Positions 3,354 to 63,511 of a DNA stretch of 64,000 bases are shown here, one piece after another. Under the pieces are notes generated by a model. That model did not search any database and was not told the origin of the DNA. It saw only the letters and a list, made by a program, of their open reading frames with translations. Position numbers and translations under genes: made by a program. Location: NCBI GenBank assembly GCA_016191875.1, contig JACPVG010000004.1, positions 1,832-65,831 on the forward strand, written 5' to 3'. Each line of letters opens with the position of its first letter. The stretch's first letter is position 1. This DNA comes from Chloroflexota bacterium (GTDB lineage Bacteria; Chloroflexota; Anaerolineae; Anaerolineales; UBA11579).

Positions 3354-3444
3354 AATCAGCATTAACCACAGAGACGCGGAGGAAACCTTGAACCTCTTTC
3401 TTTGCGTTCTTGGCGTGAGCCGCCTTTGATTTTTCCGCGCCCCA

Positions 3445-18928: not shown

Positions 18929-18993
18929 CCGTTCTACACCCTTCTTTCAGACCGGCCCACTGGTAATCGACCCCGACTCGCGACCCTTCGCTG

Positions 18994-19060
18994 GCAAATG
19001 CCGGAGGCATTTGCTTAGAGTTGGGGAAAGCCCAACTCCATTCGCTCAGGGTGACAAGCC
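18994..19060. repeat. Two-hairpin repeat element, copy 1
   Basis: GCAAATGCC-GGA-GGCATTTGC, then TAGAGTTGGG-GAAAG-CCCAACTCCAT. The homologous copy is at 40362-40410. Confidence 0.7.
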
Positions 19061-19536: not shown

Positions 19537-19590
19537 CGAGGCATGCGGCAACGCGGAATACTGACTTCAATAGCGCCGCTTCGACACCCA

Positions 19591-19622
19591 CAGACCACAA
19601 GACCACCCGACTTCAAGACTTC
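19591..19622. repeat. Phased 8-nt word tract (CAGACCAC AAGACCAC CCGACTTC AAGACTTC)
   Basis: Exact 8-nt register. Overlaps the stop codon of the ABM gene. Confidence 0.6.
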
Positions 19623-19951
19623 TCTTGCTTGTGCCCGTAGGCGCGCTCCACCCGCGCCACGCGGATTTCGTAATGCGAATACCATTCCTCGCGCCCGCGC
19701 TGCTGGGCTTCGCGGTGCTCGGCCACTTTCTTCCAGGCCCGCGCCGCCTCATCATCCACCCAGTAGGAGACCGTGATTTCCAACCCATCCGCCTGCTCCG
19801 CGGATTCATGTCCAAGGTAACCGGGCTGCTGCATCGCCAGCGCCACCATCGCGTCAGCGGTTGCGTCGTAACCCTGGTATTTCTTCGAACGGCGGGCGGT
19901 GAAAATCACCGCCGTGTAGGGCGGCTCCGGCAACTTCGCGATTCCATCCAT
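19613..19951 (-). CDS. Antibiotic-biosynthesis-monooxygenase (ABM) domain protein
   Basis: YTAVIFTARRS...GYLGHES...ITVSYWVDDEAARAWK pattern. AGGAG RBS. Confidence 0.75.
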   Translation of the reverse strand: MDGIAKLPEPPYTAVIFTARRSKKYQGYDATADAMVALAMQQPGYLGHESAEQADGLEITVSYWVDDEAARAWKKVAEHREAQQRGREEWYSHYEIRVARVERAYGHKQEKS

Positions 19952-20080
19952 TGAAATCTCCTGTTCTCGCCATCTTTCTCTACGCTTGACAGTATTCTAT
20001 TGCCTTTCTTTGCGCTCTTGGCAAGGCTATTCTTATCGCCCACTTTGCGTAAGATGTTTTCTTCCCCCCACTGATACAAT

Positions 20081-20120
20081 CCGACCACAAGACCACAAGA
20101 CCATTAGACTCCGGGACTCC
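20081..20120. repeat. Phased 8-nt word tract (CCGACCAC AAGACCAC AAGACCAT TAGACTCC GGGACTCC) abutting the start codon at 20121
   Basis: Five words in exact 8-nt register. Same word family as 19591-19622. Confidence 0.6.
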
Positions 20121-20741: not shown

Positions 20742-20763
20742 GCCTGTACCGCGCATCCTCCCT

Positions 20764-20791
20764 ATCACGTCTCACGTATCACGCATCCCAC
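20764..20791. repeat. Phased 7-nt word tract (TATCACG TCTCACG TATCACG CATCCCA)
   Basis: Lies in the spacer between the phosphomutase and DUF3090 genes. Confidence 0.5.
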
Positions 20792-23312: not shown

Positions 23313-23351
23313 CGACTTCCCGACTTCCAGACCTCAAGACTTCCAAACTTG
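23312..23351. repeat. Phased 8-nt word tract (CCGACTTC CCGACTTC CAGACCTC AAGACTTC CAAACTTG)
   Basis: Exact 8-nt register. Same GACTTC word as at 19607-19622. Confidence 0.6.
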
Positions 23352-24766: not shown

Positions 24767-25033
24767 ACGCGCATTATACGCCGCCGTTGGTGAAAACCCT
24801 GACCAGTGGTAAGCATAGGTGAACCGGGGTTTTGTCTTACTCAGACTACTGCAGGCCCCCGATCCATTCATCAGCCGCGGCTGTGTCTCCGGACCGGTTC
24901 ATCTGCCATCTGTGCGCATCCGTGTCCATCTGTGGTTTGCTTTTGGCTTTCTCCATGCCTCCGTGTGGAATTCGCTTTCCTCATAGATTCTATGATTGCC
25001 CCTTACTGGCTCCGCCGGTACAGTTAATGGCTG

Positions 25034-39740: not shown

Positions 39741-39790
39741 GGTGGGCGATTGTACCGCGCCACGGATTGTTGATTGAAGATTGGAGATAG

Positions 39791-39818
39791 TTGATTTGCC
39801 CGTTCGCGCCGCTATAAT
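39791..39818 (+). promoter_or_regulatory. Sigma-70-like promoter TTGATT-16-TATAAT at the edge of the AT-richer island
   Basis: -35 at 39791-39796 and -10 at 39813-39818. An ATG lies 6 nt after the -10. Confidence 0.45.
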
Positions 39819-39824
39819 GGAACC

Positions 39825-39890
39825 ATGCGGCCGGGCGATTTTACAGAGCGTTTACAGGTGCAGGAAAAAGTGCGCCAAGAAAGCATCTAG
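39825..39890 (+). CDS. Possible leaderless 21-aa micro-ORF (MRPGDFTERLQVQEKVRQESI)
   Basis: The ATG sits exactly where the transcription start of the 39791-39818 promoter is expected. There is no other support. Confidence 0.2.
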   Translation: MRPGDFTERLQVQEKVRQESI

Positions 39891-39902
39891 ACCATAGAGT
39901 TT

Positions 39903-40238
39903 GTGCTAATGAATATCAGTGTCGTATTGTCTGGTGCTTTGATAGTAATCACTATGCTAGCGGGTCTAGCAGGTTATTATGATAGAAGGAAACGAAAACT
40001 CTCATTGCTCTCGTTGTTTCTGGGCGGTTTTCTCATTTCGCTGTTCAACTATGATTCTAATCAATCCTTTGTGATATTAAGGGCTTTAGAGTATGGCGTC
40101 ATCGGAACAATTACTGGTTTGATTTTCGTGTTCGCCGGTACTGCAACCTTTGCTGCACTCAAGTGGCAGGTTCCTGTAATCAGCGGCCCGAGGAATTTCA
40201 TCAGATCGGTTTTACAAAGGATTCGACGCGAAAAGTAA
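39903..40238 (+). CDS. Small AT-rich hypothetical membrane protein (3-4 TM)
   Basis: 111-aa ORF whose codon third positions are mostly A/T, unlike every neighbouring gene. Hydrophobic segments and a basic C-terminus. No clear RBS. Confidence 0.4.
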   Translation: MLMNISVVLSGALIVITMLAGLAGYYDRRKRKLSLLSLFLGGFLISLFNYDSNQSFVILRALEYGVIGTITGLIFVFAGTATFAALKWQVPVISGPRNFIRSVLQRIRREK

Positions 40239-40361
40239 GCCCGCATCTGAGTAGGAAAGCCCGTAAAATCCCGTTTACATAGATTTACACGGGTTTTACA
40301 CGCGGGTGATTCGGGACGAACAAGCGAGGGGCAAGATAGGGCTGGCGCCCCCTGCAAGACG

Positions 40362-40410
40362 GGCGAATGCCTTTGGCATTCGCCTAGAGTTGGGCAAAGC
40401 CCAACTCCAT
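40362..40410. repeat. Two-hairpin repeat element, copy 2
   Basis: GGCGAATGCC-TTT-GGCATTCGCC, then TAGAGTTGGG-CAAAG-CCCAACTCCAT. Confidence 0.7.
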
Positions 40411-40765
40411 CGTACAGCATCTGGCGGCCGTGTGGCGAGCCTTTGCTTGTTGCCGTGACCGCGTGATTTAGGTTGCAGCGCAGGGTTACCGCGCCAAAAA
40501 TGGGGGTTCCAGCCAGGGAAAGTCCATTCACCATCAGCGGTAATCGCCCACCAGGGCGTCTTTCCACCTGCTTGTACATTGACATTTGCCCTCTCTCGCT
40601 TTCCCTCCCCGCCTCCCGGTGGTATCCTCCCCATCCGGGGGCTTCCCATCCATGTCTATCTGTGTTCATCTGTGGTTATATTCTCTCCTCCGCCCACCAG
40701 CCCGCTCATCCTGCGCAATCTGCGCCTTCTGCGCAATCTGTGATTCCGCGCCCAGCAGGGCAGGC

Positions 40766-41039
40766 GAATGCTACACGAATGCTACACGATGGGGACAGAT
40801 GCTACACGGATGCTACATGGATGTGACATACATACGACACGGATGTGACATGGATATGACAGAAATGTTAACAGGTGTGTCGCGCCATGTCACATTGTCA
40901 CATCCGGAGCCACCAGGGACATTCACACCGGCTCAAGCCCCGCTCAGGGACATGAAAGGACATCAAAGGGACATGCGAGGGACATGGAAAGGACAGAATT
41001 GTTAACAGGTGTGTCGCGCAATGTCCCTTTGTCCCATCC
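40766..41039. repeat. Two tandem modules: phased ~11-nt word arrays plus a bulged hairpin with a conserved 24-nt loop
   Basis: See the first finding. The identical 20-mer TGTTAACAGGTGTGTCGCGC occurs at 40866-40885 and 41000-41019. Confidence 0.75.
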
Positions 41040-41195
41040 CAAAAGACAGCCGCCCTCTCCCGTGGACGGCCAGGACATCTTGAAGACGCACCGAAGACAC
41101 CTTCAGGACGGGGGGTATCTTGTCCCCAAATCCTTCGCCGCCCACCCGGCCATGGGCAACGGACGAATCAGACCATTCAGACGATGGAGACGAAC

Positions 41196-49932: not shown

Positions 49933-50188
49933 ATGCACCTTCTGACCTGAGGGGGGCAGGCCAGAAGATGCGCTTATAGTATAACCGGAATCTTGCCGAA
50001 TCGAAAGAAACGCAACCACCAGTGATCCCCTCGACTGGTGGCTGCCGGGAATGAGCGTAAGTAGGTACGTTGTTGTTTATAGCCAATCCGGCGGCGCACG
50101 TGAATAGACAATCGTCTTGTATTATCTATGCGCATTTTTCTTTGCGCCGCTTTGGTGTATCCTCTTCCTAAGCCCCCTCGGAGGTGCC

Positions 50189-50887
50189 ATGAACGCCGCC
50201 ATCACCGTCGCTATCCTGGATGATCATCAGATCGCCGTGGATGGCAGCCTGTTCCGCCTCAGCCATTCCCCTAACATCCGCGTCGTCAAGACCGCCGCGT
50301 TCTGGAGCGAGATGGATGCCTTCCTTCAGGAAGAGGATGTGGATGTGCTCATCCTGGATGTGGGCGTGCCGTCCTCGGCGGAAGACCCCACCTACTATCC
50401 GATTCGAAACGTGGTGACCGACCTGCTGGCGGCCAAACCGGAGATGGCGATTCTGGTCATCTCGATGTATGCTCAGCGGCCGCTCATCCAGGCCGTGATG
50501 CAGGCCGGGGCCAGCGGCTACCTGCTCAAGGACGACGTGGACGCCATCCTGAACCTGGCCAGCATCGTCGAGACCATCGCCGGGAAAGACGTCTATTACT
50601 CGCCCAAGACGCTGGAAGTCCTGCGCAAGAAACAGGGCGATGACGTGAAATTGACCAACAGTGAGCAGGAGGTCTTGTTCAGTCTGGCTTCGCACCCCAA
50701 CCTGACGACGAGCCAACTCGCCAAACTGCGCAACATCGCGCCTTCCACGTTCCGCAACCACCTTTCAGCCGCCTATGTGAAACTGAACGTGAACAACCGC
50801 GTGGCGGCCATCGAGCGCGCCCGCCAGCTGGGGCTGCTGCCCAAAGACATGCCTCCGCCGAAGGTGGACGAGGGCGAAGACGAGTAA
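50189..50887 (+). CDS. NarL/LuxR-family response regulator
   Basis: Receiver domain (VAILDDH, LILDVGVP) plus a C-terminal LuxR HTH (LTNSEQEVL...). GGAGG RBS. Confidence 0.85.
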   Translation: MNAAITVAILDDHQIAVDGSLFRLSHSPNIRVVKTAAFWSEMDAFLQEEDVDVLILDVGVPSSAEDPTYYPIRNVVTDLLAAKPEMAILVISMYAQRPLIQAVMQAGASGYLLKDDVDAILNLASIVETIAGKDVYYSPKTLEVLRKKQGDDVKLTNSEQEVLFSLASHPNLTTSQLAKLRNIAPSTFRNHLSAAYVKLNVNNRVAAIERARQLGLLPKDMPPPKVDEGEDE

Positions 50888-56607: not shown

Positions 56608-57810
56608 TCACGCCATATTCAGCACATCGCGGATGCTGGGCAGCGCCCAGTCGATCGTTTCTTTGTCGATGACCAGCGGCGGCGCAAAGCGGATGACGTT
56701 GTCATGGGTCTCTTTGCACAGGATGCCCTTGATCTTCATGGCTTCGCAGAAACGCCGCGCCCCGCCGGCTTCCGGCTTGAGTTCCACGCCGATCAACAGT
56801 CCCTTGCCGCGCACTTCCTTCACGTGCGGGCTGGGGATCTCGGCCAGTTGCTCCATGAAATACTCGCCCAATTCGGCCGAACGCTGAACAAGATTCTCGT
56901 CGCGGATGACGGCCAGCGCCGCCCGCGCCACGGCCGCGCCCAGCGGGTTGCCGCCGAACGTGCTGCCATGCTCGCCGGGCTGGAACAGTCCCAGAATCGG
57001 CTTGTCGGCCAGCACGGCCGAGACCGGGTAGAACCCGCCCGCCAGCGCCTTACCGATGATGACCACATCGGCGCGTACGCCTTCGTGTTCCATGGCGAAC
57101 ATTCGCCCGGTGCGGCCGAGGCCGGTCTGGATCTCATCGGCCATGAACAACACGTTGTGCTTCGTGCACAGCTCGCGCACCGCCTTCAGGTAACCGGCGG
57201 ACGGCACGATGACTCCGCCCTCGCCCTGAATCGGCTCGACCATCACCGCCGCCGTGTTGGGCGTGATGGCGTCTTCGATGGCTTTAGCGTCACCATAGGC
57301 CACGACTTTGAAACCGGGCGTGAACGGCCCGAAGTCGTCGCGGTAGAGCGGCTCGGTGCTGAAGGTGATGATGCTGATGGTGCGCCCGTGGAAATTCCCG
57401 GCGCAGACGATGATCTCGGCCTCTTGGCGCGGCACGCCCTTGACACGGTAGGCCCACTTGCGCGCCAGTTTGAGCGCCGTCTCAACCGCTTCGGCGCCGC
57501 TGTTCATCGGCAGGCTCATGTCGTAGCCGGTCATCTCGCTCAGTTCCTTGTAGAACAGCGGCAACTGGTCGTTGCGGAAGGCGCGCGAAGTCAGGGTGAC
57601 CTTTTTGGCCTGCTCGATGAGCGCGTCCACAATGCGCGGGTGGACATGCCCCTGGTTCAACGCGGAGTAGGCGCTCAGGCAGTCGAGGTATTTGTTGCCT
57701 TCTGCATCCCACACCCACACGCCTTCGGCCTTCGTCACCACCACATCCAGCGGATGGTAGTTGTGCGCGCCGTATTTTTCTTCGAGTGCAATGTATTCTT
57801 GTGTGTTCAT
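56608..57810 (-). CDS. rocD: Ornithine--oxo-acid aminotransferase
   Basis: YGAHNYHPL, LSAYSALNQGH, TLTSRAF.ND and MNSGAEAVE closely follow the RocD pattern. Confidence 0.85.
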   Translation of the reverse strand: MNTQEYIALEEKYGAHNYHPLDVVVTKAEGVWVWDAEGNKYLDCLSAYSALNQGHVHPRIVDALIEQAKKVTLTSRAFRNDQLPLFYKELSEMTGYDMSLPMNSGAEAVETALKLARKWAYRVKGVPRQEAEIIVCAGNFHGRTISIITFSTEPLYRDDFGPFTPGFKVVAYGDAKAIEDAITPNTAAVMVEPIQGEGGVIVPSAGYLKAVRELCTKHNVLFMADEIQTGLGRTGRMFAMEHEGVRADVVIIGKALAGGFYPVSAVLADKPILGLFQPGEHGSTFGGNPLGAAVARAALAVIRDENLVQRSAELGEYFMEQLAEIPSPHVKEVRGKGLLIGVELKPEAGGARRFCEAMKIKGILCKETHDNVIRFAPPLVIDKETIDWALPSIRDVLNMA

Positions 57811-57815
57811 CGAAT

Positions 57816-57915
57816 AGTCCTTAGTCCCTGGTCCAGTGTCCAGTGTCCAAGTCCATCATGCTTCGCCAGATGATTGCACCTGCAATCAGGACAGAGGACA
57901 GTGGACAATGGACTG
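57816..57915. repeat. Opposed arms of phased 7-nt words in the argF-rocD spacer
   Basis: 57816-57857 reads AGTCCTT AGTCCCT GGTCCAG TGTCCAG TGTCCAA GTCCATC. 57888-57915 reads AGGACAG AGGACAG TGGACAA TGGACTG. A small GATTGCA/TGCAATC hairpin lies between them. Confidence 0.65.
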
Positions 57916-57926
57916 TAGTTCTTCGG

Positions 57927-63390: not shown

Positions 63391-63511
63391 GTAGCAGGGA
63401 GCAGACAAAAGGAAGCAGAGAGCAGTAAGCGGCAACTGGTAATTGCCCTGTCGCCTACATCCTCATCAAGCCATCCCGGCCCAAGCGGGGAAGCTGGCAA
63501 CCGACGGCAAT

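Follow-up and report, generated by a model that had tools for sequence, protein, structure and literature searches.

Two word-built hairpin modules in a phased repeat array within an intergenic island of a Chloroflexota genome

Near position 41000 of the 64-kb stretch of Chloroflexota DNA analysed here (contig JACPVG010000004.1; hereafter the window) lies a non-coding repeat stretch of ~350 bases, in which ~24 copies of a word of ~11 bases accompany two similar hairpins. The stretch belongs to a 1.45-kb island (39741-41195) that separates the 3′ end of a gene for a DegT aminotransferase from the beginning of an M16 peptidase operon; gene and operon are encoded on the minus strand. The question raised by this locus is whether the hairpins are themselves the object of selection, as the initial annotation had proposed from an apparently conserved loop and covarying stems, or whether they follow from the way in which the surrounding words are arranged. 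The reading favoured here, tentatively and with more doubt than confidence, is that the locus would represent an orphan array of head-to-tail sites for a DNA-binding protein of the winged-helix type, on a non-coding island acquired horizontally or expanded locally, with the hairpins as a by-product.

Direct reading of positions 40766-41039 confirmed the sequence as first transcribed, and the ~11-nt phased arrays described there were recovered by Tandem Repeats Finder, which returned a period of 11 at 40765-40861 and 40946-40995 (69-77% matches). ACA trinucleotides phased at 10-12 nt reach a density of 8 per 120 nt at this locus, compared with no more than 2 elsewhere in the 64-kb window. Array 1 (40766..40862, plus strand), seen both by reading and by Tandem Repeats Finder, comprises nine head-to-tail words with the consensus G-r-A-T-G-y-k-A-C-A-y, the ACA elements being 11, 11, 9, 11, 11, 11, 11 and 11 nt apart. 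Array 2 (40913..40998, plus strand) consists of six head-to-tail (A/G)GGACA(T/G) words, spaced at 10-11 nt from 40946 on, and array 3 (41064..41110, plus strand), read directly, of five RGAC(A/G) words at spacings of 9, 11, 11 and 11 nt with no core sequence after them.

The first two arrays lie where they had been placed, but the words do not stop there. In addition to those at 41065-41109, three inverted words of the array-1 type (CCACAGATGA, ACACAGATA and GACATGGATGG; ACAGAT-type) can be read on the minus strand at 40645..40680, and a 9-nt tandem array of CTGCGCAAT (3.3 copies, plus strand) was located by Tandem Repeats Finder at 40711..40740. TTTACA words, again read directly on the plus strand, occur as a pair 11 nt apart (39840..39856; 39840/39851), between a promoter-like sequence and a small open reading frame (ORF) described below, and as a group of three at 40263..40300 (40274, 40284 and 40295, hence 10 and 11 nt apart) with an inverted GTAAAA ahead of them. 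ACA is present in 19 of the 20 direct words of the three arrays and in all five TTTACA words, for a probability of P = 0.13 that a random 11-mer holds it; the element that the words share is ACA, usually in the form GACA. Phasing at 9-11 nt in three arrays, at a density unmatched elsewhere in the window, speaks in favour of arrays of binding sites.

The hairpins are built from the same words. Module 1 (40841..40905) and module 2 (40979..41035, the end originally given as 41036 being one base too far) are inverted repeats of identical layout, in which two direct words are followed by a 26-nt centre and then by two inverted words 9 nt apart. As originally reported, a 20-nt core, TGTTAACAGGTGTGTCGCGC, occurs exactly twice, as copy 1 at 40866..40885 and, recovered by sequence search and identical to it, as copy 2 at 41000..41019, 134 nt apart. 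No third match exists in the window at up to 3 mismatches, and two matches were obtained in 0 of 100 shuffles. Copy 1 lies within a 24-bp quasi-palindrome, GACAGAAATGTT|AACAGGTGTGTC. Taken with the DNA that follows each of them, the modules make up a higher-order tandem repeat with a unit of 134 nt and about 2.5 copies, the counterpart of CCAGGGACAT behind module 1 being CCAGGACAT behind module 2; array 3 looks like a partial third copy of this unit. A Logan contig, the one other assembly of the same organism that was found (L008:3440-3625), stops precisely where core copy 2 begins or ends its edge (...GGGACATTGCGCGACAC). A graph break at k=31 is not explained by a shared stretch of just 20-21 nt; strain heterogeneity or low coverage at the repeats is possible.

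The stretch was correctly called non-coding. Since the core copies are 134 nt apart they fall in different reading frames, as had been noted for a peptide-like string. The G+C content at third codon positions of ORFs overlapping the arrays is 0.53-0.56, compared with 0.85-0.9 in real genes, and neither Pfam nor PHROG gave a match for any ORF overlapping the array region. A 176-aa minus-strand ORF, the sole match of which was a cadherin-like repeat protein aligned over eight weak stretches, was judged spurious. The arrays are overlapped by no credible ORF.

The bulged architecture attributed to both modules was predicted on the minus strand but not on the plus strand. As minus-strand RNA, each module folds into an outer stem that is separated by a 3-nt bulge from an inner stem of 8 bp, which closes a 26-nt loop (z-scores of -3.6 and -2.9), and the A.C mismatch of the plus strand becomes a G.U pair. 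For the plus strand another pairing is favoured in module 1, and module 2 folds no better than shuffles (z -1.25). Minus-strand folds computed with DNA parameters are also stable (z -2.9 and -2.3).

Does the comparison of the two modules then require a selected fold? The stems had been described as fully compensated. Three pairs are indeed compensated, but four pairs of the outer stem are broken in module 2, and the description holds only because the outer stem of that module was trimmed to 6 bp, that of module 1 having 11 pairs. In a shuffle control 67 of 500 shuffles scored as high, a result that is not significant because only two copies are available. The changes on the two arms coincide above chance (hypergeometric P = 0.009), which indicates that the pattern is not random. 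Between the modules 17 of 81 aligned bases differ, and an identical run of 20 nt has P = 0.07-0.14; the identity of the loops is compatible with chance at this divergence.

The compensated positions are those that separate the module 1 words (GTGACA) from the module 2 words (GGGACA). The T to G substitution is found in all module-2 words, paired or not, including four to five upstream words outside the stem (40915, 40946, 40967 and 40978). Moreover, the words of the 3′ arms are perfect complements of words farther upstream, and match these better than their proposed stem partners. This module-wide substitution means that homogenisation of iterons within each module explains the ‘covariation’ without base pairing. 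On the parsimonious view, the iteron of each module is simply present there in inverted copies as well, for which selection for pairing is not required. The observation behind the initial annotation is real and non-random, but with a loop identity within the reach of chance, uncompensated pairs and unpaired words that share the substitutions, a selected fold does not follow from it.

Further copies of the core or the hairpins were found in none of the places searched, namely the window, the corresponding loci of six relatives, viral contigs, and the GTDB and JGI collections. The latter two were searched without this metagenome-assembled genome (MAG), the searched part of which is the 64-kb window. 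The exact 20-mer in viral contigs, and the core as an 18-mer in GTDB species representatives and JGI metagenome contigs, gave chance matches only, four over all collections and each within unrelated sequence. When the two hairpins were made into a covariance model, neither the window nor the six relatives' loci yielded another copy, so that the multicopy character of repetitive extragenic palindromic (REP) or miniature inverted-repeat transposable elements was not seen in the window, the relatives' loci or the public collections. No Rfam family reached its gathering threshold in the window, and a search at E<=10 gave one 16-bit chance match to a microRNA; a search for tRNA and transfer-messenger RNA found none, and blastn against plasmids gave no match. 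The island is also missing from the syntenic DegT-M16 loci of relatives. Within the searches made, the locus has no further copies and no counterpart in relatives, the two observations that the initial annotation had named as counting against its proposal.

A parallel was found for the words themselves. In a blastn search against phage genomes, array 2 alone matched, to cluster K mycobacteriophages. In phage Patt (L037, 46365-46600) four to six AGGGACAT words stand 10-12 bp apart right after the primase-helicase gene, with three inverted copies of AGGGACAT ~100 bp farther on; an array after the primase gene is not described in the cluster K mycobacteriophage paper. IMG/VR was then scanned for two words 11 bp apart (N3 spacer), loci with at least four words being counted within 300 nt. 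AGGGACAT-N3-AGGGACAT was found at 31 viral loci, 14 of them with at least four words and 11 with inverted copies. For ATGTGACA-N3-ATGTGACA there were 98 loci (80 fetched, with 85 strand-level hits, of which 39 had at least four words and 39 had inverted copies), whereas a control word, GAGCAGTA, gave 18 loci, of which 2 had at least four words and none had inverted copies. The word pattern is present in many unrelated phage contigs (viral loci L012-L140).

AGGGACAT arrays lie directly 3′ of primase-helicase genes in five contigs (L012, L015, L034, L037 and L040), these genes being of three different architectures. ATGTGACA arrays adjoin terS-terL, upstream of terS (L072, L084 and L110), or are located just after integrase genes (L113, L083, L070, L108 and L119), and in one contig a ATGTGACA array flanks a tRNA-like core as a typical attP would. 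In L015 and L110 the words are arranged as two direct, centre, two inverted with unequal spacing, and the resulting bulged hairpin has the geometry seen in the window. Between L032 and L084, terS-side sites that look homologous, the difference falls at the same G/T word position as between modules 2 and 1. The TGTTAACA centre was not found in the phage arrays. The earlier mention of protein-binding iterons is supported by analogy, in that the same words (ATGTGACA and AGGGACAT), 11-bp spacing and inverted copies occur in phages, with a negative control.

The locus may be viewed, on this analogy, as the product of local amplification of short words (iterons), each of them a binding site on double-stranded DNA. 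In each module head-to-tail words ~11 bp apart would present themselves on one face of the helix, followed by a relatively A+T-rich 24-bp quasi-palindrome around GTT|AAC and then by two words in the opposite orientation. A sequence-specific protein, presumably of the winged-helix type found in OmpR/PhoB regulators, phage and plasmid initiators, integrase arm domains and small terminases, would polymerise head-to-tail along the direct words. Over the centre the polymer would meet oppositely oriented subunits, and the DNA there may be bent, paired or opened. Hairpin potential and ‘compensated’ stems would follow from the inverted copies of each module's own word, and the present extent of the locus would reflect tandem duplication of the 134-nt unit to about 2.5 copies. 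Candidate processes are those of a replication origin, a recombination or packaging site, a centromere or an operator. Because no cognate gene is adjacent, the site would be an orphan, either a relic or used in trans.

The genome is an Anaerolineae-like MAG, and a protein search gave a 100% match to its DegT protein. The G+C content is 45-58% in the island and 67-72% in its flanks, and the only plausible gene within it is an orphan low-GC ORF on the plus strand (39909..40238), taken from the ORF list and annotated as hypothetical, which encodes a hydrophobic protein of 109 aa. A protein search with it returned the ORF itself alone, and Pfam and PHROG gave no match. At the left edge of the island a sigma-70-like promoter, TTGATT-16-TATAAT (39791..39818, plus strand; 10/12 matches), has the same position and orientation as the promoter of a putative small RNA (sRNA) in relatives. 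In those relatives (DegT identity 82% and 79%) the DegT-M16 gap is 209-256 bp and the island is absent; the spacer has a conserved TTGACA-17-TATAAT promoter that is followed by a ~130-nt C/U-rich putative RNA and then by a strong intrinsic terminator, all in the orientation opposite to the DegT and M16 genes. The putative sRNA (L006:7170-7379 and L010:7179-7435, the minus strand of these loci corresponding to the plus strand of the window) carries CCUCC motifs and has no Rfam match. Further relatives have other neighbours after DegT. On the DegT side a weak terminator-like hairpin was predicted on the minus strand (41047..41072), and module 2 starts directly after its T-tail on that strand. 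On the other side the sequence TACAAT, ~10 nt before the start codon of the M16 operon, is kept both in the window (39741-39760) and in a relative (L010:7435-7460), which suggests a leaderless or very short-leader mRNA; because the operon has its own conserved TACAAT right before its start codon, it is independent of the island.

Among known systems, the closest likeness is to iteron origins that accompany primase-helicases. In the P4 crr region two direct repeats of ~120 bp each contain several iterons. The P4 ori/crr, the origin of Staphylococcus aureus pathogenicity islands (SaPI), the putative origin of the staphylococcal cassette chromosome mec (SCCmec) and the phage arrays share with this locus words of 6-11 bp in both orientations. 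In the phage arrays of L012, L015, L034, L037 and L040 the words AGGGACAT and ATGTGACA, ~11 bp apart, are literally the same, and the two direct, centre, two inverted layout recurs. A cluster of short direct repeats with inverted copies, as in an iteron origin, is present here; as regards an unwinding element, the A+T-rich DNA beside the iterons amounts to the ~12-bp centre GAAATGTTAACA, the lowest-GC part of the island being the ORF. However, the phage arrays, like the SaPI and SCCmec origins, in which the iterons are bound by the C-terminal domain of the helicase (PMC7581432), lie directly downstream of the helicase gene, whereas the present array adjoins a gene for a sugar aminotransferase, with no gene for replication present. 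Among the window ORFs no initiator or helicase gene adjoins the array, the neighbours being DegT and the orphan membrane ORF, and the words are far more degenerate than in those systems. A chromosomal oriC was rejected, as the island contains no TTATCCACA DnaA box at <=1 mismatch and the cumulative GC skew falls on both sides.

The boxes of OmpR/PhoB regulators take the form CTGTCAT-N4-CTGTCAY in the Escherichia coli Pho box, TT(A/T/C)ACA-N5 for Bacillus subtilis PhoP and 11-nt direct repeat units in Streptomyces. The likeness lies in head-to-tail hexamers or heptamers containing ACA with an 11-bp periodicity, direct repeats of 10-11 bp being present here. CTGTCATATCCATGTCAC (minus strand, 40862-40845) fits the Pho box at 15/18 positions, and TTTACA-N5-TTTACA occurs at 39840 and 40274. 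Known boxes, however, have 2 to ~9 units just upstream of the -10 element, compared with ~24 here and no sensibly placed regulated gene, and inverted units are foreign to the architecture known for them. No OmpR-type regulator was found nearby; a LuxR-like protein at 50117-50887, recognised by a look at the sequence only, is the sole regulator recognised in the window.

Tyrosine integrase arm sites and small-terminase pac/cos sites provide a third comparison. Phage ATGTGACA pairs, 11 bp apart, stand on both sides of the core beside integrase genes (L113, L083 and L070) or ahead of terS (L084 and L110), and the quasi-palindromic centre with its 6-bp GTTAAC spacer resembles an integrase core-type site, but the island has far more words and no integrase, tRNA, terminase or prophage gene. 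A tyrosine-recombinase att site was rejected for want of a tRNA and an integrase, repeats and a quasi-palindromic core being present. A parS site was rejected on reading the sequence, and the template and variable repeats of a diversity-generating retroelement on the grounds that the differences involve all bases and no reverse transcriptase was seen among the window ORFs.

Several observations weigh against an array of protein-docking sites. No gene for an initiator, integrase, terminase, partition protein or OmpR-type regulator was found in the island or among the examined window ORFs. The words are degenerate, with the 69-77% matches reported by Tandem Repeats Finder, whereas phage iterons are near-identical, and the phage scan was calibrated with a single control word. 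By BLAST the primase-helicases beside AGGGACAT arrays have no common C-terminal domain, except for the L015-L037 pair, and the AGGGACAT word is therefore not tied to a single protein family. Many other intergenic tandem-word arrays are present in the window, with periods of 7, 8, 9 and 10 nt, so that the 11-nt period may not reflect helical phasing. Finally, one of the word-built hairpins lies in an operon and shows a compensatory change, which points to RNA-level roles for such structures.

This last hairpin is the rocD leader (57811-57926, minus strand), the 116-nt spacer between the OTCase gene and rocD (ornithine aminotransferase, 56608-57810). It consists of 7-nt words, with four GTCC before a centre and six GGAC after it, the last of which extend into the start codon, and folds into a strong hairpin (z -3.5). 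In an ortholog whose RocD is 94% identical (L159:9890-10001) pairing in the stem survives a change from GTCC/GGAC to GCCC/GGGC, whereas in a relative at 93% RocD identity (L160:6842-6912) the array is absent and a simple hairpin stands in its place. Selection thus seems to maintain at least this one of the word-built hairpins. Tandem words of 7-11 nt are found in about ten intergenic regions of the window, nearly every locus having a word of its own; locus-specific words of 7-10 nt are found at 1460-1563, 19583-19608, 20083-20112, 20763-20787, 23314-23350, 24906-24934 and 63391-63440. The words include an ATTCG-type word, GACCACAA, TATCACG, GACTTCC, CATCTGTG and AGCAG; GACCACAA lies on either side of the gene at 19613-19951, and the CATCTGTG array at 24906-24934 recurs in the island at 40658-40680. 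Word-built hairpins are a habit of this genome, are turned over fast, and may occupy transcribed and possibly RNA-functional positions. The short tandemly repeated repetitive (STRR) sequences of heterocystous cyanobacteria, by comparison, are genome-wide families of a few fixed heptamers such as CCCCAGT. The many intergenic regions with 7-11-nt tandem words are STRR-like, and GTCCAGT at 57831 resembles CCCCAGT, but the words of this genome differ from almost every locus to the next, and the present locus adds inverted copies and a duplicated core.

These arrays bring forward the explanation that survives best after protein binding, namely neutral or selfish repeat turnover of a minisatellite-like kind without sequence-specific function, which is possible but rather unlikely. 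In a genome prone to arrays, slippage would produce the 11-nt words, template switching the inverted ones and tandem duplication the 134-nt unit, while quasi-palindrome correction and array homogenisation would give rise to the hairpins and their ‘compensation’. The ten or so regions with their own words, the speed implied by a rocD-leader array that is present in one relative and gone in another, the absence of the island from relatives and of other copies from every search, the degeneracy of the words, the non-significant loop identity and the fit of the 3′ arm words to more distant upstream words are all consistent with turnover. Set against it is the conservation of ACA in the direct words and in the TTTACA words, although the array types otherwise share almost nothing, as is the above-chance coincidence of changes on the two arms. 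Bacterial genomes also have a deletion bias, under which a diverged 350-nt junk array would be unlikely to last.

Less likely again is a role for the modules as a pair of RNA hairpins on the minus strand, transcribed with or after DegT as a 3′ untranslated region or by read-through, or from extended -10 sites within the modules; such hairpins would act as a stabiliser, a processing site or a protein-binding stem-loop that presents the 26-nt loop. Formation of the same bulged hairpin by both modules on this strand alone, the three compensated pairs, the position of the modules directly after the weak DegT terminator and the compensatory change that keeps the rocD-leader pairing in an ortholog would all fit this proposal. 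The minus strand of core copy 1 moreover supplies the spacer and extended -10 element (TGTTAACAT) of a promoter-like GTGACA-17-TGnTAACAT sequence in module 1, 17 nt after GTGACA. The proposal is weakened by the score of the shuffle control with only two copies, by the broken outer-stem pairs of module 2, by a covariance model that found no further copy, by an Rfam search in which the chance microRNA was the one match, and by the lack of a T-run after either hairpin. It also leaves unexplained why the unpaired upstream words carry the module-specific form.

On the plus strand, an RNA rich in GGA and ACA might be the expanded body or 3′ part of the relatives' sRNA and titrate a GGA-binding protein such as CsrA as a sponge, in the manner of CsrB/RsmZ; this is very unlikely. 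GGA occurs 16 times on the plus strand (15 as A(N)GGA) and 5 times on the minus strand, compared with 7.3 +/- 2.3 in shuffles, so that many A(N)GGA motifs on one strand are present, as in CsrB/RsmZ. Both hairpin bulges read ACA-UGG-A. In relatives a promoter, a ~130-nt RNA and a terminator have the same orientation and locus, and the promoter is kept at 39791-39818. However, GGA is not preferentially unpaired, its mean unpaired probability being 0.34 against 0.41 for the whole region. The arrays have no promoter near them, the nearest lying ~950 nt upstream, and no promoter-terminator bracket, with a weak terminator-like site at 41100; no Rfam match was obtained, and alignments between the window and the relatives' sRNA were unconvincing. 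The E. coli Pho box fits the same words about as well, at 15/18, and motif matches of this kind arise easily. The words of array 1 come near the CsrA consensus RUACARGGAUGU obtained by systematic evolution of ligands by exponential enrichment, in which ACA and GGA are invariant (PMC4347634), matching it at 9-10/12 positions, the invariant ones among them; from Chloroflexota MAGs there is a report of csrA together with flagellar genes (PMC11650866).

A functional element of two modules, specific to this Chloroflexi lineage, is likewise very unlikely. As an orphan decoy or origin-like site, it would capture an initiator, integrase or terminase brought in by phages whose iterons are GTGACA/GGGACA; as a regulatory RNA expanded from the relatives' sRNA gene, it would offer the same 26-nt loop twice, once on each hairpin, and the self-complementary GUUAAC in this loop would serve to pair loop with loop or to capture a protein.

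In the pMV158 origin a hairpin with the nick site is found together with three direct repeats of 11 bp. A single-stranded hairpin site for an HUH-type enzyme (a rolling-circle origin, oriT or IS200/IS605-like end), with the nick site in the identical loop and the iterons binding the enzyme, is the least probable reading of all, for although a hairpin with an identical loop lies near 11-nt direct repeats, folds stably on the minus strand with DNA parameters and carries GTGTGT, as at the MobM nick site, neither island nor window holds a Rep, relaxase or TnpA gene, no plasmid matched, phages matched in the iteron word alone, part of the 26-nt loop pairs with itself and two tandem copies with nothing between them are unlike a transposon. 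HUH sites and integron attC were rejected likewise, there being no Rep, relaxase, TnpA or IntI gene, no plasmid match and no RYYYAAC/GTTRRRY in the stems.

Other repeats were observed around the arrays and elsewhere in the window. To the left of the arrays, the non-coding segment 40240-40760 is predicted on either strand to fold more stably than its shuffles (z about -3) and contains a purine-rich/C-U-rich segment at 40590-40650. A double-hairpin dispersed repeat, GGCGAATGCC-TTT-GGCATTCGCC TAGAG TTGGGCAAAGCCCAA, lies on the plus strand at 40362..40410, with a second copy of ~50 nt in the same orientation at 18993-19041 (GGCRAATGCC..GGCATTYGCY TAGAG TTGGGSAAAGCCCAA CTCCAT). The two copies differ in hairpin 1 by a compensated A-T to G-C change, and the repeat is probably a dispersed REP-like element of this genome. 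A GIY-YIG-like ORF (~2108-2400, identified by eye) is flanked by 35-nt inverted repeats, TGTCATTCCGAGCGAAGCGAGGAATC..., at 2028-2062 and 2444-2478. The GTCATTCCGAG motif occurs five times in the window, including 18876, 36422 and 36736, which suggests a small mobile or dispersed repeat family. A 19-nt motif, CTTTCTTTGCG(T/C)TCTTGGC, is present in two unrelated intergenic regions (3396-3414 and 20004-20022), two matches having been obtained in 0 of 100 shuffles. In relatives, the closest by DegT carries an intergenic 41-nt tandem repeat (L005:8687-8846; 3.9 copies, 94% matches) ~1.5 kb beyond DegT with a short inverted repeat in every unit, and another (L010:5031-5065) has a tandem AGTTATCCAC array of 3.4 copies with a DnaA-box-like TTATCCAC, between bPH_5 and DUF92 genes.

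Should the arrays be real protein-docking sites, they would constitute a chromosomal iteron-type site without a partner gene, and may then be what remains of an element since lost, or else serve a mobile element or a regulator in trans. If repeat turnover is instead the cause, the locus would show an Anaerolineae-like genome building word-based hairpins in intergenic DNA. Under either reading, compensated differences between two tandem copies built from iterons are no evidence of a selected fold. The occurrence of GTGACA/GGGACA words 11 bp apart beside phage replication, packaging and integration genes could, in addition, help to annotate the cis-acting sites of phages.

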